From Escherichia coli (lineage in GTDB: Bacteria > Pseudomonadota > Gammaproteobacteria > Enterobacterales > Enterobacteriaceae): a DNA stretch of 64,000 bases. The position numbers were made by a program, and so were the translations under genes. The notes under the pieces are model-generated. The model worked only from the letters and a program-made list of their open reading frames with translations. It ran no database searches and was not told the DNA's origin. The number at the start of each line of letters is the position of its first letter. Position 1 is the first letter of the stretch. The stretch lies in the NCBI RefSeq assembly GCF_045037415.1, contig NZ_CP173438.1; one strand, written 5' to 3'. Below are positions 15,601-62,154 of this stretch, piece after piece.

Positions 15601-16409
15601 TCAGTAAAGAAGTGAGCATCCGGGGTACGCGTCTGCGGCACGTTTGAACCCCAGGCGATGATGTAGCTGGAGTTGTACCAGTCAGCAGATTCCGGTACGT
15701 CAGTTTGCTCACCCCAGGTTTGCGGAGACGCAGGAGGCAGGTCGCAGTACCAGTCGTAGAAGCTTAAGCAAGTACCGCCAATCAGCGAGAGATAGCGCGC
15801 ACCCGATGCGTAAGAAACCATCGACATTGCCGGAATTGGCGAGAAGCCAGCGACACGGTCCGGGCCGTAATTTTTGATGGTGTAAACGTTAGATGCGGCG
15901 ATCAGTTCGTTCACTTCCTGCCAGGAAGAACGAACAAAACCACCGCGTCCACGCGCCTGCTTAAAGCTTTTCGCTTTATCGGCGTCTTCAATGATAGAAG
16001 CCCATGCCTCAACCGGATCGCTATGCAGCGCCTTCGCTTCACGCCACATTTTCATCAGGCGTTTGCGCATCATCGGGTATTTCAGGCGGTTAGCGCTGTA
16101 AAGATACCAGGAGTAGCTGGCACCGCGCGGGCAGCCGCGAGGTTCATGGTTTGGCAGGTCCGGGCGAGTACGCGGATAGTCAGTCTGCTGGGTTTCCCAG
16201 GTGACCAGACCGTTTTTGACGTAGATTTTCCAGCTGCAGGAGCCGGTGCAGTTTACCCCGTGGGTAGAGCGGACGATTTTGTCATGCTGCCAACGCTGGC
16301 GATATCCATCCTCCCAGTCACGGTTGGTATTGAGAAGCTGGCCATGCCCATCGGCAAAGGTTTCACCCTTCTGTTTGAAGTAGCGAAACCGGTCCAGGAA
16401 TTTACTCAT
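12666..16409 (-). CDS. narG: Respiratory nitrate reductase 1 alpha (molybdopterin) subunit
   Basis: 1247-aa ORF MSKFLDRFRYFKQKGETFADGHGQ... recognised as NarG. Confidence 0.98.
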   Translation of the reverse strand: MSKFLDRFRYFKQKGETFADGHGQLLNTNRDWEDGYRQRWQHDKIVRSTHGVNCTGSCSWKIYVKNGLVTWETQQTDYPRTRPDLPNHEPRGCPRGASYSWYLYSANRLKYPMMRKRLMKMWREAKALHSDPVEAWASIIEDADKAKSFKQARGRGGFVRSSWQEVNELIAASNVYTIKNYGPDRVAGFSPIPAMSMVSYASGARYLSLIGGTCLSFYDWYCDLPPASPQTWGEQTDVPESADWYNSSYIIAWGSNVPQTRTPDAHFFTEVRYKGTKTVAVTPDYAEIAKLCDLWLAPKQGTDAAMALAMGHVMLREFHLDNPSQYFTDYVRRYTDMPMLVMLEERDGYYAAGRMLRAADLVDALGQENNPEWKTVAFNTNGEMVAPNGSIGFRWGEKGKWNLEQRDGKTGEETELQLSLLGSQDEIAEVGFPYFGGDGTEHFNKVELENVLLHKLPVKRLQLADGSTALVTTVYDLTLANYGLERGLNDVNCATSYDDVKAYTPAWAEQITGVSRSQIIRIAREFADNADKTHGRSMIIVGAGLNHWYHLDMNYRGLINMLIFCGCVGQSGGGWAHYVGQEKLRPQTGWQPLAFALDWQRPARHMNSTSYFYNHSSQWRYETVTAEELLSPMADKSRYTGHLIDFNVRAERMGWLPSAPQLGTNPLTIAREAEKAGMNPVDYTVKSLKEGSIRFAAEQPENGKNHPRNLFIWRSNLLGSSGKGHEFMLKYLLGTEHGIQGKDLGQQGGVKPEEVDWQDNGLEGKLDLVVTLDFRLSSTCLYSDIILPTATWYEKDDMNTSDMHPFIHPLSAAVDPAWEAKSDWEIYKAIAKKFSEVCVGHLGKETDIVTLPIQHDSAAELAQPLDVKDWKKGECDLIPGKTAPHIMVVERDYPATYERFTSIGPLMEKIGNGGKGIAWNTQSEMDLLRKLNYTKAEGPAKGQPMLNTAIDAAEMILTLAPETNGQVAVKAWAALSEFTGRDHTHLALNKEDEKIRFRDIQAQPRKIISSPTWSGLEDEHVSYNAGYTNVHELIPWRTLSGRQQLYQDHQWMRDFGESLLVYRPPIDTRSVKEVMGQKSNGNPEKALNFLTPHQKWGIHSTYSDNLLMLTLGRGGPVVWLSEADAKELGIADNDWIEVFNSNGALTARAVVSQRVPAGMTMMYHAQERIVNLPGSEITQQRGGIHNSVTRITPKPTHMIGGYAHLAYGFNYYGTVGSNRDEFVVVRKMKNIDWLDGEGNDQVQESVK

Positions 16410-18531: not shown

Positions 18532-20328
18532 ATGCTTAAACGTTGTCTCTCTCCGCTCACCCTGGTTAATCAGGTTGCGCTTATTGTGTTGCTTTCTACT
18601 GCTATTGGACTGGCAGGGATGGCGGTTTCTGGCTGGCTGGTGCAAGGCGTTCAGGGCAGCGCCCATGCGATCAACAAAGCGGGATCGCTGCGCATGCAAA
18701 GTTACCGTCTGTTGGCAGCAGTGCCATTAAGCGAGAAAGACAAGCCCTTAATTAAAGAGATGGAACAAACAGCATTTAGCGCCGAGTTGACTCGAGCAGC
18801 AGAACGAGACGGGCAACTGGCGCAATTACAGGGTTTACAAGATTACTGGCGTAATGAACTGATCCCTGCACTGATACGTGCACAAAACCGCGAAACGGTG
18901 TCAGCGGATGTCAGCCAGTTTGTTGCCGGGCTTGATCAGCTGGTATCTGGTTTTGATCGCACCACGGAAATGCGCATTGAGACAGTGGTGCTGGTCCATC
19001 GGGTAATGGCGGTATTTATGGCACTTTTACTGGTATTCACTATTATCTGGTTGCGGGCGAGATTGCTACAACCGTGGCGGCAACTGCTGGCAATGGCGAG
19101 TGCCGTCAGCCATCGCGATTTTACCCAACGCGCAAACATCAGCGGGCGCAACGAAATGGCGATGCTTGGAACTGCGTTGAACAATATGTCTGCAGAACTG
19201 GCGGAAAGTTATGCCGTACTTGAGCAGCGGGTTCAGGAGAAAACCGCTGGGCTGGAGCATAAAAATCAGATCCTCTCTTTTTTATGGCAGGCTAACCGCC
19301 GTTTGCATTCCCGCGCCCCGCTGTGTGAACGCCTGTCACCTGTACTCAACGGCTTACAGAATTTAACCCTGCTACGTGATATCGAACTGCGGGTGTATGA
19401 CACTGATGATGAAGAGAATCATCAGGAGTTTACCTGCCAGTCAGATATGACTTGTGATGATAAAGGCTGCCAGCTCTGCCCGCGCGGCGTATTACCCGTT
19501 GGCGATCGCGGCACAACCCTGAAGTGGCGGCTGGCTGACACTCATACGCAGTACGGTATTTTGCTGGCGACCCTGCCGCAGGGGCGTCATCTTAGCCATG
19601 ATCAACAACAACTGGTGGATACCCTGGTTGAACAACTCACCGCCACGCTGGCGCTGGATCGCCATCAGGAACGTCAGCAACAGTTGATCGTGATGGAAGA
19701 GCGTGCCACCATTGCGCGCGAACTGCATGATTCTATTGCCCAATCTCTCTCTTGCATGAAGATGCAGGTGAGTTGCTTACAGATGCAGGGCGATGCGCTG
19801 CCAGAAAGCAGCCGCGAACTGTTAAGTCAGATCCGTAACGAACTGAATGCATCCTGGGTGCAGTTGCGTGAATTGCTCACCACATTCCGTTTGCAGCTCA
19901 CCGAGCCTGGATTACGTCCGGCGCTGGAGGCGAGTTGCGAAGAGTACAGCGCCAAATTTGGCTTCCCGGTGAAGCTGGATTATCAATTGCCGCCTCGTCT
20001 GGTGCCTTCGCATCAGGCAATCCACTTGTTGCAAATTGCCCGTGAGGCATTAAGTAACGCCCTCAAACATTCGCAAGCGAGTGAGGTCGTGGTGACGGTG
20101 GCGCAAAACGATAATCAGGTCAAACTGACCGTCCAGGATAACGGCTGCGGCGTGCCTGAAAATGCCATCCGCAGCAATCACTACGGCATGATAATAATGC
20201 GCGACCGTGCGCAAAGTTTACGAGGCGATTGCCGCGTCCGCCGTCGTGAATCAGGTGGCACCGAAGTGGTGGTCACCTTTATTCCCGAAAAAACTTTCAC
20301 AGACGTCCAAGGAGATACCCATGAGTAA
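18532..20328 (+). CDS. narX: Nitrate/nitrite sensor histidine kinase
   Basis: 598 aa. The H-box is [15 protein letters not shown]. Two N-terminal TM segments are present. The gene overlaps the narL start. Confidence 0.97.
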
Positions 20329-20970
20329 TCAGGAACCGGCTACTATCCTGCTGATCGACGATCACCCGATGTTGCGAACTGGCGTAAAACAGCTTATCAG
20401 TATGGCACCAGATATCACTGTGGTTGGCGAAGCGAGTAATGGCGAACAGGGTATTGAACTGGCGGAGTTCTTGATCCCGATCTGATCCTGTTAGATCTCA
20501 ATATGCCCGGCATGAACGGTCTGGAAACGCTGGATAAACTGCGCGAAAAGTCCCTCTCCGGGCGCATTGTGGTATTCAGCGTCTCTAACCATGAAGAAGA
20601 TGTGGTCACCGCACTGAAACGCGGCGCGGATGGCTATCTGTTAAAAGATATGGAACCGGAAGATCTGCTGAAAGCGTTACATCAGGCAGCTGCTGGCGAA
20701 ATGGTATTAAGCGAAGCATTAACGCCTGTTCTGGCCGCCAGCTTGCGCGCTAACCGTGCCACTACTGAGCGCGATGTTAACCAGTTAACCCCACGCGAGC
20801 GCGATATTCTCAAGCTGATTGCCCAGGGTTTGCCGAACAAGATGATTGCCCGCCGCCTGGACATCACCGAAAGCACAGTAAAAGTTCACGTCAAGCACAT
20901 GCTGAAGAAAATGAAGCTAAAGTCTCGCGTGGAAGCTGCGGTATGGGTGCATCAGGAGCGCATTTTCTGA
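20321..20970 (+). pseudogene. narL: Nitrate/nitrite response regulator NarL, disrupted by a 1-nt deletion (or a sequence error)
   Basis: From ATG 20321 the frame reads ...[11 protein letters not shown]. The next frame continues [21 protein letters not shown]... to the normal C-terminus. The Ser codon of ELAESLDPD is reduced to TT at 20468-20469, and a premature TGA falls at 20483-20485. Confidence 0.85.
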
Positions 20971-40546: not shown

Positions 40547-42815
40547 GTGTGCCCGGAGTTCAGGGCGGGCATGGATGCTTAAATGAACCGCGAGTCTGTC
40601 TGGAATATTGAGCCGGTAACTCACGATGAGAAACCCAACAATCCCACCGGGTGTGACGGTGGAGAACCTGAGCGGCAGTGACCTGCGGCATGCCCGCAGG
40701 GTGATGTAACCCGCTGACAACGGGGATTGAGGCGAGATCACTAAGCCGAGATGATCCTCAAGGTTAAGTACTGAAAGGCTGAAGAACATGAACCCGTTAA
40801 TCCGCCTCTGTGGGTTGAAAACGTCACCACGGCCTACGTGATCTGACAGGCCGTGCAGGAGGAACTGGCAGTGATACGTAAGCACTGCCGGTCGAAGGTG
40901 TTTTGACATGTATGCGAAACACCGGGGCAGCAGCGTCTATCACGCTTGCGTTGCTGACTTCTGCCAACTTGCGGCAAGCAAGGATAAAGAGTGCGACGGG
41001 CAGCCTCCTCAGTATGCCTGAGTCCAGGCAGGTAAACCGGGGAAGGTCAGCGACGGATGTTAAGGGGGCATGGCTCCGATGACGCGCTGGCTGGCGGAGC
41101 TTCCGTAGTAGTCCGCGATGGGGAAAGCCCATTACATGGCGAAGGGAAGCAGTTTGAATGTGTTTGCGACGTGAATTAACTGACCTAACGAGGTGAAGAC
41201 CTTTGATAATCAGCGAAATGCAACGCAAGCTTGCCACATGGGCAGTCACCGATCCGTCCCTACGGATTCAACGGCTGCTGCGTCTGATAACACAACCAGA
41301 ATGGCTGGCTGAAGCGGCGCGGATCACGCTTTCATCAAAGGGGGCCCATACCCCCGGCGTTGATGGCGTGAACAAAACAATGCTACAGGCCAGACTGGCT
41401 GTTGAGCTGCAAATCCTCAGGGATGAATTACTCTCAGGCCACTACCAGCCCTTGCCCGCCAGACGGGTTTACATCCCTAAAAGCAACGGCAAACTGCGAC
41501 CACTGGGTATCCCCGCGTTGCGGGATCGTATTGTTCAGCGGGCCATGCTGATGGCGATGGAGCCGATATGGGAGAGTGATTTTCATACGCTCTCATATGG
41601 CTTCCGGCCTGAGCGCAGTGTCCACCACGCGATCCGCACGGTGAAATTACAGCTCACAGACTGTGGTGAAACCCGGGGACGCTGGGTGATTGAAGGCGAC
41701 CTGTCCAGTTACTTCGACACCGTACATCATCGACTGCTGATGAAGGCTGTACGCCGCAGGATCAGTGACGCACGTTTCATGACTCTGCTGTGGAAAACCA
41801 TCAAGGCGGGACATATCGATGTCGGTCTCTTTCGGGCGGCCAGTGAAGGTGTGCCACAGGGCGGTGTTATATCGCCGCTATTATCGAACATCATGCTGAA
41901 TGAGTTCGATCAATACCTGCATGAGCGCTACCTGAGCGGGAAAGCCAGAAAAGATCGGTGGTACTGGAATAACAGTATCCAACGGGGCCGAAGTACGGCG
42001 GTCAGAGAAAACTGGCAGTGGAAACCCGCGGTGGCGTACTGCCGCTATGCCGATGATTTTGTCCTCATCGTCAAAGGCACCAAAGCACAGGCGGAAGCCA
42101 TCAGGGAGGAGTGTCGGGGTGTGCTCGAAGGCAGTCTGAAACTCAGGCTGAACATGGATAAGACTAAAATCACCCATGTTAATGACGGCTTTATCTTTCT
42201 GGGGCACAGGATCATTCGCAAACGCAGTCGTTATGGCGAGATGCGAGTGGTTCAACGATCCCGCAGGAGAAAGCCAGAAACTTCGCCGCATCGCTGACAG
42301 CACTGTTATCAGGCAACTACAGTGAAAGCAAAGTCGATATGGCTGAACAACTCAACCGAAAACTGAAAGGCTGGGCCATGTTCTATCAGTTCGTTGATTT
42401 TAAGGCCAAAGTCTTCAGTTATATCGACCGTGTCGTGTTCTGGAAGCTGGCTCACTGGCTGGCCCGCAAATACCGTACAGGTATCGCTTCCCTGATGAGG
42501 TGGTGGTGTAAATCACCGAAACCGGGTCAGAGCAAAACGTGGGTTTTATTTGGTAAAACCAATCACGGCAAGCTCAGCGGCGAAATACTGTACCGGTTGG
42601 TGGGGCAAGGCAAGAAGCTGTTCCGCTGGCGGCTACCCGAAGGTAATCCCTATCTGAGGACGGAGACCAGAAACACGTATACATCGCGCTTTACAGAAGT
42701 GGCAATGGCGTTCGCCAGCATTTAAATGGAGAGCCGGATGCGCTGAAAGGTGCACGTCCGGTTCGGGGAGGAGAGGCAGGGAAATAGTCCGACTACGCCC
42801 TGCCTCTTACTCTAC
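40547..42815 (+). mobile_element. Bacterial group II intron (ribozyme plus RT/maturase ORF)
   Basis: The 5' end is GTGTG (GUGYG) and the 3' end is ...CTAC (AY). Joining 40546 to 42816 restores DITY|IRTWQGWLYLAVVIDLF of orfB. Domain V is GAGCCGGATGCGCTGAAAGGTGCACGTCCGGTTC at 42731-42764, followed by a domain VI hairpin. Confidence 0.9.
41203..42725 (+). pseudogene. Group II intron-encoded reverse transcriptase/maturase, frameshifted
   Basis: ORF 41203..42297 carries the RT motifs (LGIPALRDRIVQ, YADDFVLIV). ORF 42339..42725 carries the maturase X domain (KLKGWAMFYQF...). The shifted frame TIPQEKARNFAASLTALLSG bridges the two ORFs. A T appears to be missing at GGTT|CAACG, about 42249-42253. Confidence 0.8.
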
Positions 42816-50065: not shown

Positions 50066-51463
50066 CTAGTCCTTCACTTTCATCGTGAAACCACGCCAGT
50101 CCGGTAGTGAAAGCGCGCCCGTTGCCACTACCCCATCATGATCCAGCATGCAGACACGACCAGGGTTCATACTGACAACCTCACGGATATACGCCTGCTC
50201 CACACCACAGATCATAAACGCCAACAGTGCCTTATTCCGCGCATATTGATGATGGTGAGTCTTTTCACGCTGATACACCTCACTATTAAGATCCAGTATT
50301 AATCCGACTTCATTAGCGTACCTGTGATAGTTACGCGGTGATGAACAACTCTTGCGGTGTGCGCCATGCACACGTTCCAGCAATGACTCAAGCGCAGATT
50401 TCAATGGACTGATATAACGGTTCCACCAACGCAAAATCTTTAGCGCCTTTTTTTTGCTGTTACCGCACCATCCATACACTTTTGCCCCAAGGCCATCATT
50501 AACACCAATAGTCACACGCCCAATTCTGTAGGTGGTGGTATGGACCATCTGTTTGCACTGTTTACGGGTCAGCCCGGTATGTTCCATCATGGTTTTATAT
50601 ATCGATGACTTCACACGATAATCGACGTCATACTGTCTGAACAGATGGTTCAGACAGGCCAGATTGCACGCTTCGATGTCATAGTTGAGTAACCCGGTCC
50701 GAAATTTAGCTTTGAACTCATTGGGCAGATTCTGGAAAGCTTGATCATAATACCGCCCTCCAAACGTCAGACGATAATGATGGTCGTAAGTGACATATTG
50801 TCCCTCAATCCTGCCATTGTAGAGATGGTTAAGGCTGCGTATTCCTGCGCGGTAATAGTGATCCGGCTCACGGCTACGCAATTCCTTCACAAACTGTATA
50901 CTCATGCGCCCCCGCCCAACTTTGGCCAAGAAGTCCTTTTCCGTTTGTTTTAGGGCCGTCTGGCGTTTCTCTACATCTATCGCATGCCCAGGAGCTTTCC
51001 CGTTCCCCTGAAGCAGAGCTCTAAAACTAACAGACTCACCAGTATCCAAGTCAACCAGATTTAACTTACCCCTGGCAGACTCATCACACACAGGCAGCAG
51101 GGGGTTGAACCGCCATGCACTGGCTCTACGCTTTTCCGGGTCTTTGCTCGCTTTTCCTGCACGAAATTCAATATCCGAAAGTGTCGGCAGGAAATCAGTT
51201 AGCGTGGACATAAAGCACTCCCCCTGGTAACTAATTTCACACTGTCCCAGGAGACTGGCATAGCTGCTACGGATATCCCGGACAGTGCATATAGTCCAGC
51301 CATCATCGTCTGTTTCCAGCCATATGTGAGCCAGGAACCACCGTACTGTCTGCCGCCGGGTAACAGCCCATTGCGTATCCCCCACGACATAATCCGTTAT
51401 TTCAGTAATACGGTCATAAACCCACTTAGGGATCTTCACTGGATAATCCTTTTCAGTACTCAC
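50066..51463 (-). CDS. Stand-alone family-A (Pol I-like) polymerase-domain protein with a novel N-terminal region
   Basis: 465 aa with a GTG start after GAGGGGA. Motifs read directly are NGRIEGQY...FGGRYYDQAFQNLP (cf. TGRxHTSY...TGRLSSxxPNLQNIP) and NYDIEACNL (motif A, DYSQIELR). Also present are RKQCKQMVHTTTYRIG (motif B, R-x3-K-x7-Y-x2-G) and MLDHDGVV (motif C, HDE). Confidence 0.65.
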   Translation of the reverse strand: MSTEKDYPVKIPKWVYDRITEITDYVVGDTQWAVTRRQTVRWFLAHIWLETDDDGWTICTVRDIRSSYASLLGQCEISYQGECFMSTLTDFLPTLSDIEFRAGKASKDPEKRRASAWRFNPLLPVCDESARGKLNLVDLDTGESVSFRALLQGNGKAPGHAIDVEKRQTALKQTEKDFLAKVGRGRMSIQFVKELRSREPDHYYRAGIRSLNHLYNGRIEGQYVTYDHHYRLTFGGRYYDQAFQNLPNEFKAKFRTGLLNYDIEACNLACLNHLFRQYDVDYRVKSSIYKTMMEHTGLTRKQCKQMVHTTTYRIGRVTIGVNDGLGAKVYGWCGNSKKKALKILRWWNRYISPLKSALESLLERVHGAHRKSCSSPRNYHRYANEVGLILDLNSEVYQREKTHHHQYARNKALLAFMICGVEQAYIREVVSMNPGRVCMLDHDGVVATGALSLPDWRGFTMKVKD

Positions 51464-53870: not shown

Positions 53871-54485
53871 ATGATTGGTAACCAAAGCAACAAGGCTGAC
53901 GCCAGATGCCACCGGGAACGGAAAAGCAGTAACGAGGTCTTTGAATTTCTGGAGAAGAAGCTTTATCTGGGACGGGATACCCGGCAAAAACTGGCACTGA
54001 TTGCCCGGAAACTGACGGGAGCGGGTTTTAGCCCGGATAAATTCGCTGCGGAGAAAGCGGCAGATGTGCTGAGTGCCTGCGTGAACCACATGTTTAATGA
54101 CCTGCTCAATGAGGGAGAGCCAAACGGGATTTATAGGCCGGAGGAACACCCCATGATAGTCCCGGCCAGGTCCCCTAAGGCACTGGAAATCTATACTGTT
54201 TACCAGCTTGTAAAAGGTCGTTTTGACAAGCTTCATACGGGGGAGTCAGATCGTGAGAAATATGCTTCGGTAGCAGAAAAACTTAATGAGTATGGAATAT
54301 GGAAACCCCGGTTAAAACGACTCTCTGACGGTAAAGAATGGGCGCGTGAGGATGTTGCGTGGATGCTTCAGCCTGAAAATATCAATGCACAAATTAACAT
54401 CCAGAATCAAAAGTACGCGCGGTTGAGTGCTGAAGATGAAACTGAAACCGAGTCTGGCAACGCCTCAACTGCTAAAAACATCTGA
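53871..54485 (+). CDS. Hypothetical protein
   Basis: The ORF track starts at 53859. ATG 53871 is preceded by GGAGG, giving 204 aa. I recognise no motif. The 3' end overlaps the convergent recombinase gene by 14 nt. Confidence 0.55.
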   Translation: MIGNQSNKADARCHRERKSSNEVFEFLEKKLYLGRDTRQKLALIARKLTGAGFSPDKFAAEKAADVLSACVNHMFNDLLNEGEPNGIYRPEEHPMIVPARSPKALEIYTVYQLVKGRFDKLHTGESDREKYASVAEKLNEYGIWKPRLKRLSDGKEWAREDVAWMLQPENINAQINIQNQKYARLSAEDETETESGNASTAKNI

Positions 54486-55401
54486 TGCGCTTGCTGGCAC
54501 TGATCTTCATAGTATCACCACGACAGTCATAGCGCGTCGTCGTGGATATGTCGCTGTGGCCTGCCAACTGGCGGACGGTATTGATATCCACGCCCTGCTC
54601 CAGCAAACGGGTGATGAAGGTGCGCCGCATATCATGCGGGGTAAAACGTGCTATACCTGCCGTTTGCTGTAACTCAGCCAGGATACCCGTTAACCCGGTC
54701 GTAGTCAGCGGTTGGCTTGCGACCTTACCACTGCGCTGAATTCGCCTAAACAACGCACTGTCAGCCTCGTCTGCGCCAACTTTCAGCCACGCACGAATAG
54801 CCTTGTCCACCGCATCCGCCACGTGAATTTCACGGTATTTACGCCCCTTCCCTTGCCTCACCGTCAGGATGCCGTTGTCATAGTCCCGGCGCTCAAGTTT
54901 AACCAGTTCCCCGGCCCGCAGGCCCGTTCCGCAAAGCATCAGCACAATGGCGACATCGCGACAGCGCCGTACAGATTGCGGATGCTGTTTTGCAGCCTGA
55001 ATCAGTACCCGGATTTCCTGCCTGCCCAGCGCCCTTCCCTTGCGCTGGACATCGCCGCTCACGCGCTTAACTGACCGGATACGTGCCAGCGTTTCGGCAT
55101 CCATGTAATTGAGGTTAAAGGCCGTCTGCGCTACGCCCCGGAGTGCTGACAGCGCCATGTTGACCGATGACACGGCGTAACCGTCATCCAGCAGTGCCGC
55201 GCGCACTTTGGCAACGGCGGCGTAGTTAAGTTGTTCCCACGGATAGTCTGCTGCATCCGCACCGTGTTTAAGTATGCTGGCGCTGCGGTTTAACAGGCTG
55301 GTGATACCTCGCCGTCCCGAGGGGGCCAGACCGACAATATACGCATCGAACACGGTGGTTTGCACCACCGGCACGACCTGACGCAACGCTGTCCTGCTCA
55401 T
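54472..55401 (-). CDS. Tyrosine recombinase (XerC/D-like phage integrase family)
   Basis: Catalytic contexts are TGLRAGE (R), GKGRKYR (K), HDMRRTF (HxxR), GHSDISTT (H) and TRYD (Y). I prefer ATG 55401 to the TTG at 55416. Confidence 0.85.
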   Translation of the reverse strand: MSRTALRQVVPVVQTTVFDAYIVGLAPSGRRGITSLLNRSASILKHGADAADYPWEQLNYAAVAKVRAALLDDGYAVSSVNMALSALRGVAQTAFNLNYMDAETLARIRSVKRVSGDVQRKGRALGRQEIRVLIQAAKQHPQSVRRCRDVAIVLMLCGTGLRAGELVKLERRDYDNGILTVRQGKGRKYREIHVADAVDKAIRAWLKVGADEADSALFRRIQRSGKVASQPLTTTGLTGILAELQQTAGIARFTPHDMRRTFITRLLEQGVDINTVRQLAGHSDISTTTRYDCRGDTMKISASKRIRCF

Positions 55402-55447
55402 GCGCGTAACCCGCAATAACGTACATTAAACCAAGTAACTTTCAGCA

Positions 55448-55900
55448 TCACACCAGTCCTCGCTCAGCCATCGACACCGTTTCAGTTCCTGCCACGATAA
55501 AGTGATCAAGTAACCGCACATCCAGTATTTCCAGCAGCTCCTGAAGCTTTTTGGTCAACTGGATGTCACACCGGCTGGGTTCAGGCTCGCCGCTGGGGTG
55601 ATTATGGACAAGGATGACGGCGGCGGCGTTATGTTTCAGCACACGCTTAATAACTTCACGGGGGTGAACGCTGACCGAGTTTAGCGTACCCCTGAACAGG
55701 ATTTCGCGGTGCAGCAGCTGATTATGATTATCGAGTAGGATGATGCCAAACTCTTCATGTTCAAGCGGTGCCAGCTCAACCATCACGCACCGTCGAACAT
55801 CATCAGGGGAACAGAGTTGAACCCCACGCTGGTAGTACCGGCTAATAATGTCACGCGCCTGGTCAAGGATACGGGTTTCACGCTGGGTAAACATGGTCAT
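55448..55900 (-). CDS. RadC-like JAB/JAMM domain protein (YeeS/YfjY/YkfG family)
   Basis: ATG 55900 lies 1 nt after the upstream stop. The JAMM motif is LVHNHPSGEPEPSRCD. Confidence 0.85.
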   Translation of the reverse strand: MTMFTQRETRILDQARDIISRYYQRGVQLCSPDDVRRCVMVELAPLEHEEFGIILLDNHNQLLHREILFRGTLNSVSVHPREVIKRVLKHNAAAVILVHNHPSGEPEPSRCDIQLTKKLQELLEILDVRLLDHFIVAGTETVSMAERGLV

Positions 55901-55901
55901 G

Positions 55902-56441
55902 TCAGAACTCCCGTTCAATGAAGTAAATGGCGTCTGGAAACAGCTGGCGGCGGGTTACGCCAGTACGCAGGGAGAAAGCTTTACGGGGCATGGTGGTTCG
56001 CCCGTTGCTGTCGAAGAAGCAGAGCATTTCTTCGTCCATTTTGACCAGAAGGGACCAGTGAAACTGGTCGCTGAGCATAATCAGGCGAGAGTGGTCAGTG
56101 ACGTCAAGAAACCGCTGCATTTCCCTGAACAGCCGCCCGTCTGTTAACCCCCGCTTCCCTGCAAAGGGTCTGGTGATTTCAACCGGGAACTGGCGGCGGT
56201 AATGCCCTTTCTGCAACACCTGAGCTATTAACCAGTCTAAGCGGTCTTCTTCAATTCCTTCAGTCAGCCATTCATGCAAAGGCCAGCGCTGCTGATAAGT
56301 CTGAATAAGCCAGTTCATTAACGGGCGTCGTTTCACCCTGCCGTCATACAGCCAGCTCAGCATGTTAACCACGCAATAAGCACCGCAAAGACAGTCCAGT
56401 TCGCCCTGTTGAGACGCACGTATCCCTCTGTCAGTCGTCAC
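55902..56441 (-). CDS. Predicted papain-fold cysteine peptidase-like protein
   Basis: 179 aa with a GTG start after GGGGA. QQGELDCLCGAYC has the Gln-x5-Cys spacing typical of papain-like oxyanion/nucleophile pairs. DQFHWSLLV...FFDSNG supplies candidate His and Asp/Asn residues. Confidence 0.5.
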   Translation of the reverse strand: MTTDRGIRASQQGELDCLCGAYCVVNMLSWLYDGRVKRRPLMNWLIQTYQQRWPLHEWLTEGIEEDRLDWLIAQVLQKGHYRRQFPVEITRPFAGKRGLTDGRLFREMQRFLDVTDHSRLIMLSDQFHWSLLVKMDEEMLCFFDSNGRTTMPRKAFSLRTGVTRRQLFPDAIYFIEREF

Positions 56442-56482
56442 AGATAATTCCCCATAAATTAGTGATGGTTAGTACAGGGGGA

Positions 56483-56905
56483 TTAGCTTTCCCAGAGAAC
56501 GGTAATGGTGTAGATGTTCATGCCGTGATACTGAATAAAGTTGGATTGCCAGAGTTCAAACAGCTCCCTTCCGGCGTTAACAGGCAGGTCACCAACATAA
56601 GCAAGAAAGACATATTGCTGACTCCAGCTGATATCAATTTCCTTTTCAAGTTCGGGGTATACCGTCCCCATATAACTGAAGTCGGTAATGTAATCAAAAT
56701 ACCATTCATCATTGCGTGAAATAATCCGTATTTCGACAGGATGGTAACCACCCTTTTCAGCGCTGTAACTCAGGTCTTTAAATAACAGACTGACGGCTGT
56801 AATTTTGGCTTTATGCGGCGGTGGATTTCCCGCTTCATTTAATATGATATTTATTAATTCCTGATCGACGGGCATAGCTAGCCCTTCCTGATGGACAATA
56901 TTCAT
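56483..56905 (-). CDS. Hypothetical 140-aa protein (possibly DUF2787-like; family recalled with low certainty)
   Basis: AGGAAA precedes the ATG. It is the first gene of the minus-strand operon 56905->54472. Confidence 0.5.
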   Translation of the reverse strand: MNIVHQEGLAMPVDQELINIILNEAGNPPPHKAKITAVSLLFKDLSYSAEKGGYHPVEIRIISRNDEWYFDYITDFSYMGTVYPELEKEIDISWSQQYVFLAYVGDLPVNAGRELFELWQSNFIQYHGMNIYTITVLWES

Positions 56906-57162
56906 CAGTGATTTTCCTGTTCAATATATTCTGATAAGACGTTATGTCTGCACCAGCACAGGTGGGGTTTAATCACCTAATAAATGGTAAGTGCATGACA
57001 ACGTACTGACTGGGTAAAATATAGTTCACCAGCAATATTATTATATCAAAAATATACTTTTTATGCAAATAGTAACAAAGAGAAACTAATATGTGGTTCA
57101 GCAATGAAATAACTGGCAATAGGTTTTTATTCATTATTAAGTGATGGCATACTTTCCATTCT

Positions 57163-57214
57163 GCCATGTCAGACAGGTCAGGATTCCGGGGTGGTTCCTT
57201 CTGTCTGGCATGGC
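57163..57214. repeat. 14-bp-stem inverted repeat just 3' of the c-like repressor gene
   Basis: GCCATGTCAGACAG-N24-CTGTCTGGCATGGC pairs with one G-U. No U-tract occurs on either strand. Confidence 0.7.
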
Positions 57215-57229
57215 GGAAAACTGACGCTA

Positions 57230-57718
57230 TCACACCTTCCCGTTCAGCTTTTCAAAGAGGCGCTTACGCTCATCTTCGGGCAGCTTCATGATTTGTACCG
57301 CCAGTTCAGAAACATTGGGCACCTGAGACATCAGATCGTCCTTTACCAGCCTGAGGGCCTGCTCCATCAGTTGCGCCCGCGAAGCTGGCGACATATTGCG
57401 ATACAGCTGCACCCAGAGGCTTAGCTGGCGATCACTGTCGTTGAGAGTAAACGCTTCGCCCTTAGCCCTGTTTCTCTCATCATCAAGCGACATTGTGGCT
57501 GCGCTAATATGGTAAACCACACCTTTCCCGGCAGTCCTTTTACGACGTATTTCCGGGTGCAGGGATGCCAGCTTTTCCAAGCGCATCCTGGCGCCACGCG
57601 CAGTGCCCGGCATCCCCTCAATATGAGTGAATTCCTCTGCTGTCAGCCAGTCTTTAGCCTCTTCAACAGAAGCTTCAGGATGAGTAGGTATAGCCGAAAC
57701 TGTTCTCTTACTGCTCAT
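57230..57718 (-). CDS. Mu Repc(c)-like DNA-binding repressor
   Basis: ATG 57718 gives 162 aa. EEFTHIEGMPGTARGARMRLEKL...RKRTAGKGVVYH parallels the Mu c repressor N-terminal winged-helix region (...MPGSVAGVHYRA...RKKEGVKGGKAVEY) as I recall it. Confidence 0.6.
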   Translation of the reverse strand: MSSKRTVSAIPTHPEASVEEAKDWLTAEEFTHIEGMPGTARGARMRLEKLASLHPEIRRKRTAGKGVVYHISAATMSLDDERNRAKGEAFTLNDSDRQLSLWVQLYRNMSPASRAQLMEQALRLVKDDLMSQVPNVSELAVQIMKLPEDERKRLFEKLNGKV

Positions 57719-57764
57719 ATAAATTTCACCAGATATCAATGCGTTAATATGAAAACCAATAAAT

Positions 57765-57792
57765 AGATACCAAAAGAACTTGAAAGGTATCT
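57765..57792. promoter_or_regulatory. Inverted repeat AGATACC-N14-GGTATCT in the c/ner divergent intergenic region
   Basis: Read directly. The region also contains three TTAATA(T/C) copies. It is a candidate operator. Confidence 0.4.
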
Positions 57793-57839
57793 TTTATTCG
57801 CATTTAATATCCATGTACTGATTCCATGGAGTTAATACT

Positions 57840-58109
57840 GTGCGTAACTCAACAGCATCGCAGAAAAAGCAAATCAAAGGAAGTTCAGGGAACTGGCATC
57901 GTGCCGATATTGTGGCAGCACTTCACAAGCGAGGGTTAACGCTGGCGTTACTGTCACGCAGTCACGGCCTTGCGCCACGGACATTAAATAACGCCTTAGA
58001 GCGTCATTATCCCAGAGCTGAGCGCATTATTGCCGGGGCTCTGGATACGACACCGGAAACATTATGGCCGGAAAGGTATGCCCTTAAAAATGGACCTAAT
58101 AGCAGGTAA
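57840..58109 (+). CDS. Ner/Nlp(SfsB)-family DNA-binding protein
   Basis: 89 aa. WHRADIVAALHKRGLTLALLSRSHGLAPRTLNNALERHYPRAERIIAGALDTTPETLWPERY is the Ner-like HTH signature. Confidence 0.85.
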   Translation: MRNSTASQKKQIKGSSGNWHRADIVAALHKRGLTLALLSRSHGLAPRTLNNALERHYPRAERIIAGALDTTPETLWPERYALKNGPNSR

Positions 58110-58120
58110 AGGATGCAACC

Positions 58121-58648
58121 ATGGCAACCACCATCACTGAAATAACGGAATGCTTTGAGTATTTTTTCAGTTCTCTTTATCGCAGGGAGTTCGTCAAAAC
58201 CCTGCGTCTGAACGAATGTAGCGAGCGGGAATTACTGCCTCTGGTACGTTGCTATTTGCTGGGTTGGTTTGCAGATAACGTCTCACCGGAAGTAAAAAGC
58301 AAACTGCCAGGAACTGTATCCGGGCACGGTTACATTGATTTTGTCATTGACGATGTGGCCGTTGAGTTTGCAGTACGTAAACCAACTGCGGCACGTTCCA
58401 ATGTCTCTGCGACCGTCAACAGTACAGAAGTAAAGAAATTGATGAAACATGACGGCAAAGCCTTGCTTGTGCTGTTTGATTTCTCTGACACACCCTATTC
58501 AGAAGAACAGATTGAATCCTTCCGCAACTGGCCCTCTCTTGGTCGAGGGAATCATCGCAAGTCTGCATTCAACGTCGTTTATTTCTTTGTGGAAAAACGC
58601 AGACCGCTGGCACTGGGGAAAATCACCAAAAACATCCGTATCACTTAA
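58121..58648 (+). CDS. Hypothetical cytoplasmic protein, possible PD-(D/E)xK-like fold
   Basis: 175 aa with AAGGA before the ATG. GYIDFVIDDVAVEFAVRK...STEVKK could supply D...E.K, but the spacing is atypical. Confidence 0.5.
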   Translation: MATTITEITECFEYFFSSLYRREFVKTLRLNECSERELLPLVRCYLLGWFADNVSPEVKSKLPGTVSGHGYIDFVIDDVAVEFAVRKPTAARSNVSATVNSTEVKKLMKHDGKALLVLFDFSDTPYSEEQIESFRNWPSLGRGNHRKSAFNVVYFFVEKRRPLALGKITKNIRIT

Positions 58649-58662
58649 CAGGGAATTAATTA

Positions 58663-59022
58663 ATGAACAGAAAACTGTTGGCCTTATTCATGGCAGCCAT
58701 AACGCTACCAGTCGCAGCAGCGCAGTACGTAAAACCCGGAGCGGTTCTAACCCTGCATCCGGGACAGAATAACGCTGAATTCAACATTAATGCCTCAACG
58801 GGGGATGGTTCGGGCGTATGCAATATGGAGGGGACAGCACAGCAAATAGCTGCCGGAGAAAGTCAGAAGCGTCGCTGGGTCTGGAATGACAATGCCAGCG
58901 AGTGTGTTGCAGTAATTAGTGAACTGACAAACGGTAAGGCCAGCATTATGACACGTGGTTGCGAGGGATACTGCGGGGCTTCTGCGGCAGGCGCAATGGA
59001 TGGTCTATTTAATAAGAAATAA
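58663..59022 (+). CDS. Hypothetical secreted protein (signal peptide, four Cys)
   Basis: 119 aa. MNRKLLALFMAAITLPVAAAQ is a signal peptide ending in an AxA-like cleavage site. Confidence 0.55.
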   Translation: MNRKLLALFMAAITLPVAAAQYVKPGAVLTLHPGQNNAEFNINASTGDGSGVCNMEGTAQQIAAGESQKRRWVWNDNASECVAVISELTNGKASIMTRGCEGYCGASAAGAMDGLFNKK

Positions 59023-59052
59023 AAGTATCATTAATTTACGAAGGAACTACAG

Positions 59053-59388
59053 ATGAAAAGAGCAATACTTCTGGTATTAATTGCTGCTGGTTTGCTGGCT
59101 GGCTGCGGCGAGAAAACGCCAAAATGTAGTAGTGATGATGCAAAAAATCTGGTCGGGGATATTGCAAGAAAGACAATCGAGAAAGGGATGAAACTGGATA
59201 AGGATGTGCGTATTTCTGTAGAAAATGTCAGAACAATTAGCCATGAATCAGATCTGGATGTTTATCAGTGCGCTGCTGATTTAACGTTTACAAAACCAGA
59301 TTTGCAAAATTCTCTACCAATCACCTACCGGATTCAGAAAACTGATGAGGGTAAAGGTCCGTTTTATATAAACGTAACAGGTTTATAA
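59053..59388 (+). CDS. Hypothetical lipoprotein
   Basis: 111 aa with the lipobox LLAGC after a hydrophobic leader, and AAGGA before the ATG. Confidence 0.6.
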   Translation: MKRAILLVLIAAGLLAGCGEKTPKCSSDDAKNLVGDIARKTIEKGMKLDKDVRISVENVRTISHESDLDVYQCAADLTFTKPDLQNSLPITYRIQKTDEGKGPFYINVTGL

Positions 59389-59454
59389 TCACTGAATAAC
59401 ATCCGGGTTCCTTTTGGGTGAAATAATTCATGTTTTATTCCAAAAGGAAACCCT

Positions 59455-59700
59455 ATGAAAAAGATCATCATATTTACCATTATAGCTATTATCACATTTA
59501 GTTGGCTCGTTACACACAATACAACTGAGTCCGAAAAAATCCCTCCTGCTAATACTCCCTTTATTATTAAGTCTAACGTACCTGGCATGTGCAAGGTCAG
59601 CGCCATCACAACCTCTACAGATACCAAACAGAATATACCTGTCGTAGCGTGCAAAATCAGCATTACGACCGCAATCACTTCCAGTACTACCAGTTACTGA
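59455..59700 (+). CDS. Hypothetical small signal-anchored protein (Thr/Ser-rich)
   Basis: 81 aa. MKKIIIFTIIAIITFSWLV is an N-terminal TM segment. AAAGGAAA precedes the ATG. Confidence 0.5.
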   Translation: MKKIIIFTIIAIITFSWLVTHNTTESEKIPPANTPFIIKSNVPGMCKVSAITTSTDTKQNIPVVACKISITTAITSSTTSY

Positions 59701-60267
59701 TCACTGTGTTTACTTTACCGACAGACTGGGATACAAAAACGTCAAACACCTTCTCAATCAGTCTTATACCGTAAGCAATGCCGGGTGTGTCGGGCTCTGA
59801 GGGTTGATTAATTCCACAGGCATATGAAGACTAAATCCTACCATCCCCATACCTGCTGAGCCGCTCCGTTGAACATCTTTATCGCCTTGCTGTGGGTGCC
59901 AATCACGGCTATCCCCGCCCGTCTTGTAGGTTGGGGCTCACCAAATACGATGCCACTGGGAAGCTCTTTCAGTGTCACGTAATGCCATTTATAGCCCAGA
60001 TATGACCTGCTACTGAGCTAACTACATTGATTTGCCTAAATCCTGGGGCCTCTAAAGCGTCAGCGCCGCGCAGCAGTATAGGCAAGCCACTTTTAACGGG
60101 TTTTATCCGGCTCCCTGAGGCTGCTTTCAGAAAAGGCGTGTAATCGGATAACTACAGCAACCTAGGGAAGTATGTGCTTGTAGAATGAATGCAGTGGTAA
60201 TCAAGACTACCGCTTTTACAAACCCCACCAATCGTATAACTGCGATTTGATGGCTACCCATCCTAAG

Positions 60268-62154
60268 TTACTTCATTAAAATAGCACTATTTTTTGAGGG
60301 CAGCGGGATAAGGGCTCTGCGCTCTCCATCCATTGCATGTTCACCCGCAAACCATTCGTAATGAACTTTATTCATGATTGATACCGGCGGTTCTTTATTC
60401 TCTATAACTATGATTTGTAAGGTATCAGGCAATTGGGTCAGTGAATGCCAGAAGCCTTCCTCAATACCAGCCGATATGGGTTCATCGAAGCCCGATACCG
60501 TAGCAGCGGCTTTCTTCTTATAACTTGTCAGCGGTGAATCAATCACGACTAGCCCAGGATGCGGGTATCCTTTTTTAATACAATATTTTAGTAATCCAAT
60601 GATGAAAGCTGAATAAAGAATGGCACGAACACCTTTACCGTGAGACTGCCGAGGTTGTCCATCAACAATGATGTCATACTCTTTTTCATTAAATGAAACG
60701 TCAGGCTCGGCACCCCATTTCCAGTCTTTTAAAACAGTTTCAATTTCTCTACAAAGTTCGGCCAGCGTACGGGTAGATAATCCCTCCCATTCGAGCCGTG
60801 GTTGACTGCTCTTTTCCAGCAGTATTTCTATATCCTTTTGATGTTTTAGTAACTCAAACCATCTCTGTCGATCATTCAACTCAGAGTCTCTTTCAGCTCG
60901 CTGCTCAATAGCTAAATCTAGGCTTTCTTTGGAAAGTGTAAGAAGAGGCTCAAAAGTATATTTGATCTGGTTCTTCATTCCATCCAAGCTTTCTTTTGAC
61001 TTATATCTGTCTATATTCAGAGCTTCTTTTCTTCGGTCAAGATCACTCATCGCTTTTTGCAGGCCTGCAAGGTATCCATGAATTTTTGCAGCTTCAGCTA
61101 AAGAAGAACGTCGGACTTCATTACTGTTCATTAATTTTTTAGCGTTCTCACTGTGTGGATGTAGTAAATTTTGTCCACAAAGGGAACAAGGAACTTCCTG
61201 AAGTGAAGTGAAATAGTGAGAACCTTCGGAAATAAAATCCAACCGCTTCAGGTCGGAATGGTAACGTTCTTCTAATAGGCTATATCTCGATTGAATTTCA
61301 GATACTCCCATTAACTGAGATTCTATTTTTAACGTTAACGCTGTCTCCATTTTTATTCCCTCGAGCAAGTCAGAAATAGCGGCTGCAGCCCTCTCAACTT
61401 CATCAATTGCTTGTGCAATCAATTGATCTGATAAATCATCTGCTGAGCTCGTTAATGGAAACTTGGGCGAACAAATTGAGAAACGTTCATCAAGTGGTCG
61501 AATCAAATCCTGGATGAATTCAAGCTTCGCCATCAACCTCGCTTTTACAATTTCAGGCTTTTCCTCTACGGTAACACCACCATCATCGTGCCCGGTAAGG
61601 ATGTATGAAAACATGCGTTTTCGAGCAGTGTCGTCATAACCGGAACGTCCCGTTACTGGCGAGTATTCGTCGATAATGGATACTTCATCTACCAAAAATA
61701 TAGGAGCGAGCGTTCGAATCGAGAAACGTTGCGTTTCGCCACGAGCATTCTTGCGAAGCTTCGCCTCTTTGATCCCCGCAAAAGGGAAAAGTATGGACGT
61801 CACATCTGGCCCCTTACTCGTTCCTTTACGCACAGGAGCAATTATTTTACCTTCTCCATGGATGTCTTGAATAGCGACATCATGTGCCTCTAATTTCCCC
61901 CCCTCAAGACCGCGCTTGAGCGTTAACACCCCCCCTTCATCATTTTCGAATTCAACATAAAGATGGGTGTAATCGGTGGCCTCTTTAAGCTTTTTTTTGA
62001 GTTTTTCGGCACCAAGAATGTAGTCAAGACAACTCACAAGGTAACTTTTCCCAGTATCAGATTCCCCTGCTAGAATATTCGCACCCTTATAGAAATCAAC
62101 ATAAGCGTCTTGAACGCTGTTTCCGCGCAATAGTATTTTTCTTATACGAAGCAT
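60268..62154 (-). CDS. Rad50/SMC-like ABC ATPase (LmuB / ABC-3C ATPase, DUF3732-like)
   Basis: ATG 62154 lies 1 nt after the upstream stop (MLRIRKILLRGN...). It has Walker A GESDTGKSY and a long central helical region with CSLCGQ (CxxC, zinc-hook-like). The C-terminal motif is GLVVIDSPLTSY (Walker B/D-loop). Confidence 0.75.
   Translation of the reverse strand: MLRIRKILLRGNSVQDAYVDFYKGANILAGESDTGKSYLVSCLDYILGAEKLKKKLKEATDYTHLYVEFENDEGGVLTLKRGLEGGKLEAHDVAIQDIHGEGKIIAPVRKGTSKGPDVTSILFPFAGIKEAKLRKNARGETQRFSIRTLAPIFLVDEVSIIDEYSPVTGRSGYDDTARKRMFSYILTGHDDGGVTVEEKPEIVKARLMAKLEFIQDLIRPLDERFSICSPKFPLTSSADDLSDQLIAQAIDEVERAAAAISDLLEGIKMETALTLKIESQLMGVSEIQSRYSLLEERYHSDLKRLDFISEGSHYFTSLQEVPCSLCGQNLLHPHSENAKKLMNSNEVRRSSLAEAAKIHGYLAGLQKAMSDLDRRKEALNIDRYKSKESLDGMKNQIKYTFEPLLTLSKESLDLAIEQRAERDSELNDRQRWFELLKHQKDIEILLEKSSQPRLEWEGLSTRTLAELCREIETVLKDWKWGAEPDVSFNEKEYDIIVDGQPRQSHGKGVRAILYSAFIIGLLKYCIKKGYPHPGLVVIDSPLTSYKKKAAATVSGFDEPISAGIEEGFWHSLTQLPDTLQIIVIENKEPPVSIMNKVHYEWFAGEHAMDGERRALIPLPSKNSAILMK

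Follow-up and report, generated by a model that had tools for sequence, protein, structure and literature searches.

The loss of NarL, a response regulator of the NarL/FixJ type, from Escherichia coli K-12 ends or blunts the nitrate induction of narGHJI, narK and fdnGHI and the nitrate repression of frdABCD and dmsABC, and leaves NarX with NarP as its only partner, at nir, nrf and nap. The K-12 NarX–NarL system is also the closest described relative of the locus considered here. Once a single missing C is re-inserted, the narL gene found in the 64-kb stretch of DNA that was analysed (the window) encodes 216 residues, and this product is 100% identical to crystallised NarL (PDB 1A04/1RNL) over 215 residues; the overlap of narX with narL and the divergent narK–narGHJI layout are likewise present. 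As read, the gene differs from K-12 narL in that it is split at codon 50, into a short stub and an out-of-frame remainder.

Two further bodies of published work bear on this difference. The first concerns Eco31I (EcoMI), a type IIS restriction-modification system described in ST131, the lineage to which the window belongs; in ST131 strain EC958 the modified sites are GGT(m5C)TC / GAG(m6A)CC, and 100% of the GAGACC sites were found to be methylated (Forde et al., PMC4659465). The genes of this system lie outside the window, and its presence in the window’s strain is assumed from lineage; they were not found at the coordinates checked near the start of the current EC958 record. The second concerns nanopore-only bacterial assemblies, for which modification-induced errors are documented, mainly as C>T and G>A substitutions (PMC11610603; bioRxiv 10.1101/2024.01.12.575342). 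The changes described below resemble such errors in being confined to a motif and in recurring at the same base in independent assemblies, in one of which (98215) a C>T is found at the same base and in another of which (GCA_052953235.1) homopolymer errors occur as well. They depart from the published spectrum of substitutions in being 1-nt deletions, and in that the narL site does not hold the full Eco31I hexamer. From the evidence assembled here, the narL frameshift is most probably not a real feature of the strain but a motif-linked assembly error.

The features of the narX–narL region are the following:

18532..20328, + strand: narX, nitrate/nitrite sensor kinase, an intact open reading frame of 598 aa
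20321, + strand: ATG start of narL, overlapping the narX stop at 20328
20321..20485, + strand: 5′ fragment of narL, 49 native codons followed by the out-of-frame FLIPI and a TGA
20456..20470, + strand: GAACT-GGCGG-AGTTC, a 5-bp inverted repeat, seen by DNA folding and direct inspection
20466..20479, + strand: the error-associated context AGT[C]TC + TT + GATCCCG, from a motif scan
20468..20469, + strand: the missing C, by which the Ser50 codon TCT is reduced to T-T, from the alignment to EC958 and JJ1887
20470..20970, + strand: the uninterrupted remainder of narL in the next frame, from Leu51 to Phe216 and the stop
20503..20970, + strand: an open reading frame of 155 aa starting at Met62, called as a separate gene by gene callers

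In the alignment to the ST131 genomes EC958 and JJ1887, GGAGTCTCTTGATCC is replaced by GGAGT-TCTTGATCC at 20468/20469, i.e., one base is absent, and this is the sole placement of the gap that fits the alignment. The Ser50 codon is thereby left without its C (GAGTCTCTT becomes GAGTTCTT), and translation runs from MSNQ to GIELAE, then through FLIPI, and ends after 54 residues at the TGA at 20483-20485. A base missing from this Ser codon at TT 20468-20469, with a stop after 54 residues and a remainder that continues in the next frame to the normal C-terminus, had been reported in a preliminary description made from the sequence of the window, and the alignment bears it out. The reading frame is lost at codon 50, before the phospho-acceptor Asp59 is reached, as that description had also stated; Asp59 is not in one frame with the N-terminus and is encoded only in the next frame, together with the GerE/LuxR-type DNA-binding domain. 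Pfam comparisons gave the same division, with positions 1-39 of Response_reg in the 54-residue stub, and positions 42-110 of Response_reg followed by a complete GerE domain (PF00196, E = 1.5e-23) in the downstream frame. The loss of the C makes the 5-bp inverted repeat perfect, the wild-type C being a bulge in it; a strong quasi-palindrome at this site was considered and rejected, as the stem is of 5 bp only.

The surroundings of the deletion are those of ST131 genomes with an intact narL. The narX DNA is identical to the narX of EC958 and JJ1887 (WP_000918042.1), narK, the narK–narX intergenic region and narGHJI equal those of EC958 base for base, and the gene order at narX–narL / narK–narGHJI is that annotated in EC958 and JJ1887. 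In all, positions 1-32318 of the window show 0 mismatches and 1 gap against EC958, the gap being the narL deletion. Thus, the earlier statements that narX is intact and that the regulatory sites are preserved were both sustained, the latter relative to ST131 genomes in which narL is whole.

The window is from E. coli ST131, and the 24 kb around narL match dozens of complete ST131 genomes (EC958, JJ1886, JJ1887 and others) with 1 gap. Over 40000-64000, two differences from strain E18 were found, a missing C (42251/42252) and an SNP (57321, A in the window). This SNP had been considered as a third private, motif-adjacent change, which was withdrawn when the exact variant protein was found in 38 index blocks; CP056470.1 and the Logan assembly of SRR22822902 match the window at 100% over 54230-60718, SNP 57321 included, and the SNP, although 510 complete genomes lacked it, is a true marker of a subclade. 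A T8/T9 difference at 50456 was rejected as a homopolymer error, given that T8 is also found in E18 and 21AR0807 and that EC958 is the one that deviates; comparison with EC958 and E18 revealed no homopolymer errors in the 64-kb window. Relative to the closest complete genomes, the private changes in the 64 kb therefore number two, both single-C deletions, and there are 0 private SNPs. A private spectrum of indels alone is the opposite of what mutation usually yields.

The second of these deletions lies in a mobile element, with the following features:

40547..42815, + strand: group II intron in the ISEc24 transposase gene, with an Rfam Intron_gpII match at 42729-42815
41218-42725, + strand: ltrA, frameshifted by the deletion at 42251/42252
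42249..42263, + strand: GGT[C]TC + AAC + GATCCCG, with the gap at 42251/42252, the private 1-nt deletion in ltrA

The insertion itself (40547-42806, 2.26 kb) is the group II intron, which is common to several ST131 genomes. Both private deletions take the first C of GTCTC, 2-3 nt before GATCCCG: the narL context is GGAGT[C]TCTTGATCCCG, in which the GTCTC core is followed by a Dam GATC site, and the ltrA context is GTGGT[C]TCAACGATCCCG. When both strands of the repaired window were scanned for GTCTC-N(2,3)-GATC, exactly 2 sites were found, and these are the narL and the ltrA deletion sites. There are 47 GTCTC/GAGAC sites in the window, covering 0.37% of its bases. Given the first deletion, an independent second one would fall on the equivalent base of some GTCTC with a chance of about 7e-4, and on the only other site of the extended motif with one of about 1.6e-5, both values being indicative only, since the motif was picked after the data had been seen. 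The concentration of the two private differences at this C is nevertheless far beyond chance.

The base lost in ltrA is predicted to be the 5-methylcytosine position of an Eco31I GGTCTC site, and the same site is disturbed in other assemblies. The identical ltrA deletion was found in 7 complete-genome records, i.e., the chromosomes of E07, E08, E12 and E14 and plasmids of E07, E14 and 98215. When intron copies were aligned to an intact one, the E07 chromosome had the C deletion at 2 of its 3 intron GGTCTC sites, and the 98215 plasmid was altered at all three (a C>T, a C deletion and the complementary G deletion), with no differences in its intron beyond these sites. In GCA_052953235.1 a T is deleted from the same intron hexamer; this record has 4 shortened homopolymers in 5.6 kb when compared with E07, the mark of a long-read assembly left uncorrected. 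Thus, across E07, E08, E12, E14, 98215 and GCA_052953235.1 the outcomes at the ltrA site comprise C deletion, T deletion, C>T and G deletion. The frameshifted LtrA product was found in no Logan assembly and its 359-aa form is not on record; a 364-aa form is known only from GCA_052953235.1, where it stems from another intron copy with a different base deleted. A 128-aa C-terminal LtrA open reading frame, tried as a link between the run SRR31598863 (see below) and the intron deletion, was uninformative, as there are many truncated intron copies. We take the ltrA deletion to be a modification-induced error; the assembly from which the window comes would then still have uncorrected long-read errors.

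The preliminary description had proposed a comparison with narL in close relatives, and this was carried out with a lineage-neutral 137-nt segment around the site as well as with the full gene. Of the complete RefSeq E. coli genomes, 5,421 contain the segment, more than 500 ST131 genomes among them, and all have the C, so that the deletion was found in none (0/5,421); E07, E08, E12 and E14, which carry the ltrA deletion, have an intact narL. Of the metagenome contigs scanned, 71 had the wild-type pattern and 0 the narL deletion. Only 3 contigs, all from Logan run assemblies, are known to encode the exact 54-residue product, and a literature search for the three run accessions returned nothing. 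The contig from SRR31598863 (9,696 nt) is 100% identical to the window, narL deletion included, and the run is probably from the same isolate or a sibling; this contig ends at window position 15968, whereas other ST131 Logan contigs cross the locus (2692-25663, 22.9 kb), which hints at less clean read data. The accession of SRR31599326 is 463 numbers away, and this run is from an unrelated lineage with 98.4% identity, whose relatives are phylogroup-A-type complete genomes; in its 15.3-kb contig, the narL deletion is the sole difference from the complete genomes XH990, Santai, TUM18780 and others. A recombination tract of more than 140 bp shared with this strain is excluded by flanking lineage SNPs at 20419 and 20559. 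In the third run, SRR15989154, the narL deletion is accompanied by a T>C two positions off, and the 1.5-kb contig has lost one further base (T6 to T5 after GATCCTCTC), so that this data set is indel-noisy. The outcomes at the narL site in the three run assemblies are thus C deletion alone, or C deletion with T>C. Judged by accession numbers alone, SRR31598863 and SRR31599326 would be from one batch, and a deletion common to two unrelated runs with nearby accessions fits better with a batch or platform effect than with independent mutation. The pattern as a whole does not fit descent, the deletion being absent from the complete relatives and yet present in an unrelated lineage.

These observations are brought together if the narL frameshift is a context-specific (methylation-linked, nanopore-type) consensus error and not biology, a reading to which a probability of about 0.7 is given. 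The source assembly would have been built from modification-sensitive long reads, and the basecaller or polisher would lose the C in the GTCTC–Dam context, leaving a consensus error at the first C of GTCTC, 2-3 nt upstream of the GATCCCG Dam site; the strain itself would then probably have a normal narL and normal NarX–NarL control of narG, narK, frd and nir. An error of this kind accounts for the motif common to both deletions, for private changes that are all indels, for the methylated sister site with its errors across assemblies, for the coincidence of accessions and for the noisy third carrier. The mechanism at narL itself is less straightforward: the AGTCTC found there has the GTCTC core but is not the cognate Eco31I site GGTCTC, the adjacent Dam GATC is the only known methylation target, no known ST131 methyltransferase is tied to that C, and the mechanism there is proposed by analogy with the ltrA site. 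As an error, the narL deletion would be rare at most and of low penetrance, given its absence from the complete genomes. The preliminary description was right that the indel is outside a homopolymer, but its argument that such a position speaks somewhat against a read error is not borne out, since both private deletions fall on one motif and the sister site errs elsewhere. Its conditional statement that the strain, if the change is real, lacks NarL stands in so far as the gene as read encodes no full-length NarL; that the loss is real is what has become doubtful.

The main alternative is a real private loss of function, i.e., an ST131 isolate that has only the 54-residue NarL stub and in which NarX signals through NarP alone. 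In its favour, and against an assembly error, the Logan k-mer assembly of SRR31598863 independently reproduces the narL deletion with 100% identity over 9.7 kb; together with the lack of the frameshifted LtrA product in the Logan assemblies, this would fit accurate short reads that confirm narL, with an error left in the intron, which could survive polishing because the intron is a repeat. The narL site is, moreover, not a canonical methylation site, the deletion is in 0 of the 5,421 complete assemblies and hence not a common artefact, the 64 kb are free of homopolymer errors, genuine disruptions of the narL N-terminus recur in public assemblies, and the perfected GAACT/AGTTC repeat might be a weak quasi-palindrome hotspot for template switching. 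Against this, a real mutation needs 2 or 3 independent coincidences. Chance alone would have to place the two deletions on the equivalent C of the only two sites of the GTCTC-N2-3-GATCCCG type (~1.6e-5 to 7e-4, given the first), the identical deletion would have to arise independently in an unrelated strain of nearby accession, the third carrier comes from indel-noisy data, and 2 private indels with 0 private SNPs turn the usual mutation spectrum around. A real null allele is therefore considered unlikely, if by no means negligible. A variant of it, in which the frameshift is real but compensated, would supply either full-length NarL through a -1 slip at GAG-TTC-TTG, or, through reinitiation at Met62, a 155-residue NarL that lacks Asp59 and has a free DNA-binding domain. 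The ATG of Met62 (20503) does lie 17 nt past the TGA, and the isolated C-terminal domain of NarL binds DNA (PDB 1JE8, 1ZG1). Rescue by recoding or reinitiation is unlikely because there is neither a slippery heptamer nor a Shine-Dalgarno visible in the sequence upstream of ATG 20503; a receiver without its first three strands would probably misfold, and the normal frame in all related genomes gives no hint, by conservation, of a programmed event. Compensation is accordingly rated as barely conceivable.

Both deletions could also be real and connected by their motif, by way of a process of damage, mis-repair or selection for site loss that is targeted to Eco31I-type sites next to Dam sites. The strict association of the changes with the motif, in the window and in other genomes, would be accounted for, as would the 98215 plasmid with all three intron GGTCTC sites destroyed, and 5-methylcytosine is a known C>T hotspot. 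We know of no mechanism, however, by which just the methylated base would be removed; ordinary homopolymer errors accompany such changes in at least one assembly, the AGTCTC in narL is not an Eco31I site, and the narL change is in no complete ST131 genome although the lineage has Eco31I. Such a targeted process is extremely unlikely. That GTCTC-core sites just upstream of Dam sites are deletion hotspots in Eco31I-type strains is put as very unlikely; the route would be self-restriction, methylation-linked mis-repair, or a template switch promoted by the quasi-palindrome GAACT/AGT(C)TC. Were it true, unrelated lineages would repeatedly lose narL function at one and the same base, in addition to the natural narL-null alleles already evident.

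A real deletion would make this a pandemic ST131 isolate without its main nitrate regulator, with an anaerobic respiration hierarchy rewired via NarP alone and with a bearing on growth in the inflamed gut and in urine; it would be a strain-level phenotype in ST131 and not a new kind of system. The likelier lesson, in keeping with the preferred reading of a consensus error, is that single-base frameshifts from long reads can also be systematic where there is no homopolymer, as at methylation-type motifs, of which (G)GTCTC in ST131 is one, and that motif-linked errors of this sort can yield false pseudogenes in well-known regulators. A simple screen would be to test private indels for a common short motif before they are interpreted.

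Natural lesions of narL are known from other E. coli assemblies, and the allele in the window can be set beside them. Publications on the loss of narL in isolates of E. coli were searched for, and nothing relevant came up beyond one Klebsiella table entry. In the sequence index, the 155-aa open reading frame from Met62 is called as a gene of its own in at least 280 blocks. Among the lesions in ten inspected loci were nonsense changes at codons 37, 42, 49 and 58, deletions of 11 bp and of 80 nt (the latter recurrent), and insertions of +2 and of a Mu-like prophage. In these natural pseudogenes the receiver domain is hit upstream of Met62, as in the window, and the same 155-aa open reading frame is left; they differ from the window’s allele in their positions and types of lesion, and in having no GTCTC–GATC context.

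Disruption of the N-terminal part of narL, the nitrate-response regulator gene, is recorded well beyond the C deletion of the window, and the 155-aa ORF starting at Met62 that such disruptions leave was recorded in at least 280 index blocks. Independent N-terminal lesions were found in further public assemblies (loci L008, L009, L011-L014 and L016). Nonsense codons stand at positions 37, 42, 49 and 58, the small indels are a +2 insertion (GATATCCC) and a deletion of 11 bp, and narL is also interrupted by a Mu-like prophage with Mor and GemA genes. A frame-shifting deletion of 80 nt was present in three other assemblies (loci L007, L010 and L015), and it lies between the two copies of a short direct repeat within narL:

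20376-20384: first copy of the 9-nt direct repeat GAACTGGCG
20456-20464: second copy, at a spacing of 80 nt

Since the three assemblies belong to different lineages (identity to the window of 100%, 99.7% and 98.5%), the deletion suggests a recurrent slippage event between the repeats, one that would truly inactivate narL.

In SRR15989154, a Logan run assembly that shares the narL C deletion, narX carries a 1-nt deletion as well, which shortens T6 to T5 immediately 3′ of GATCCTCTC (locus L006, position 76); both deletions are found on one short contig. The context of the narX deletion is once more a TCTC run adjoining a GATC site.

A further frame is broken at a GGTCTC site, the sequence methylated by the Eco31I system of ST131, within a mobile element of the window:

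40547-42815: group II intron, within an ISEc24 transposase gene
41218-42725: ltrA, the reverse transcriptase/maturase gene of the intron

The ltrA lesion is a private C deletion (gap 42251/42252), and the same base is also deleted or altered in the intron copies of E07, E08, E12, E14, 98215 and GCA_052953235.1. The changes at this base, in the window and in the other copies, look like methylation-linked long-read errors.

Two sites of variation lie in the following genes:

50066-51463, minus strand: ORF with a T8 tract at 50456
57230-57718, minus strand: hypothetical gene of 162 aa

T8 at 50456 gives a single long ORF (381 aa in the annotation of E18), and the T9 of EC958, an ST131 genome, breaks the gene into two overlapping ORFs; the tract is either a variable homopolymer or the site of a change specific to EC958. 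The C>A SNP at 57321, inside the hypothetical gene, occurred in 0 of the 510 complete RefSeq genomes holding the region, and was found with 100% flanking identity in CP056470.1, in the Logan run SRR22822902 and in ~38 index blocks. The SNP is a marker of an ST131 subclade missing from the complete RefSeq set.

The window also includes an island, whose genes are named as in EC958 and E18, where DNA identical to it is annotated:

about 43000-64000: genomic island

It contains degraded IS elements, RadC, two tyrosine recombinases and a frameshifted DUF3999 gene adjoining a DUF2339 gene, together with an annotated ABC-three-component defence-type system and a reverse transcriptase/endonuclease annotated as belonging to the retron Ec67 family.
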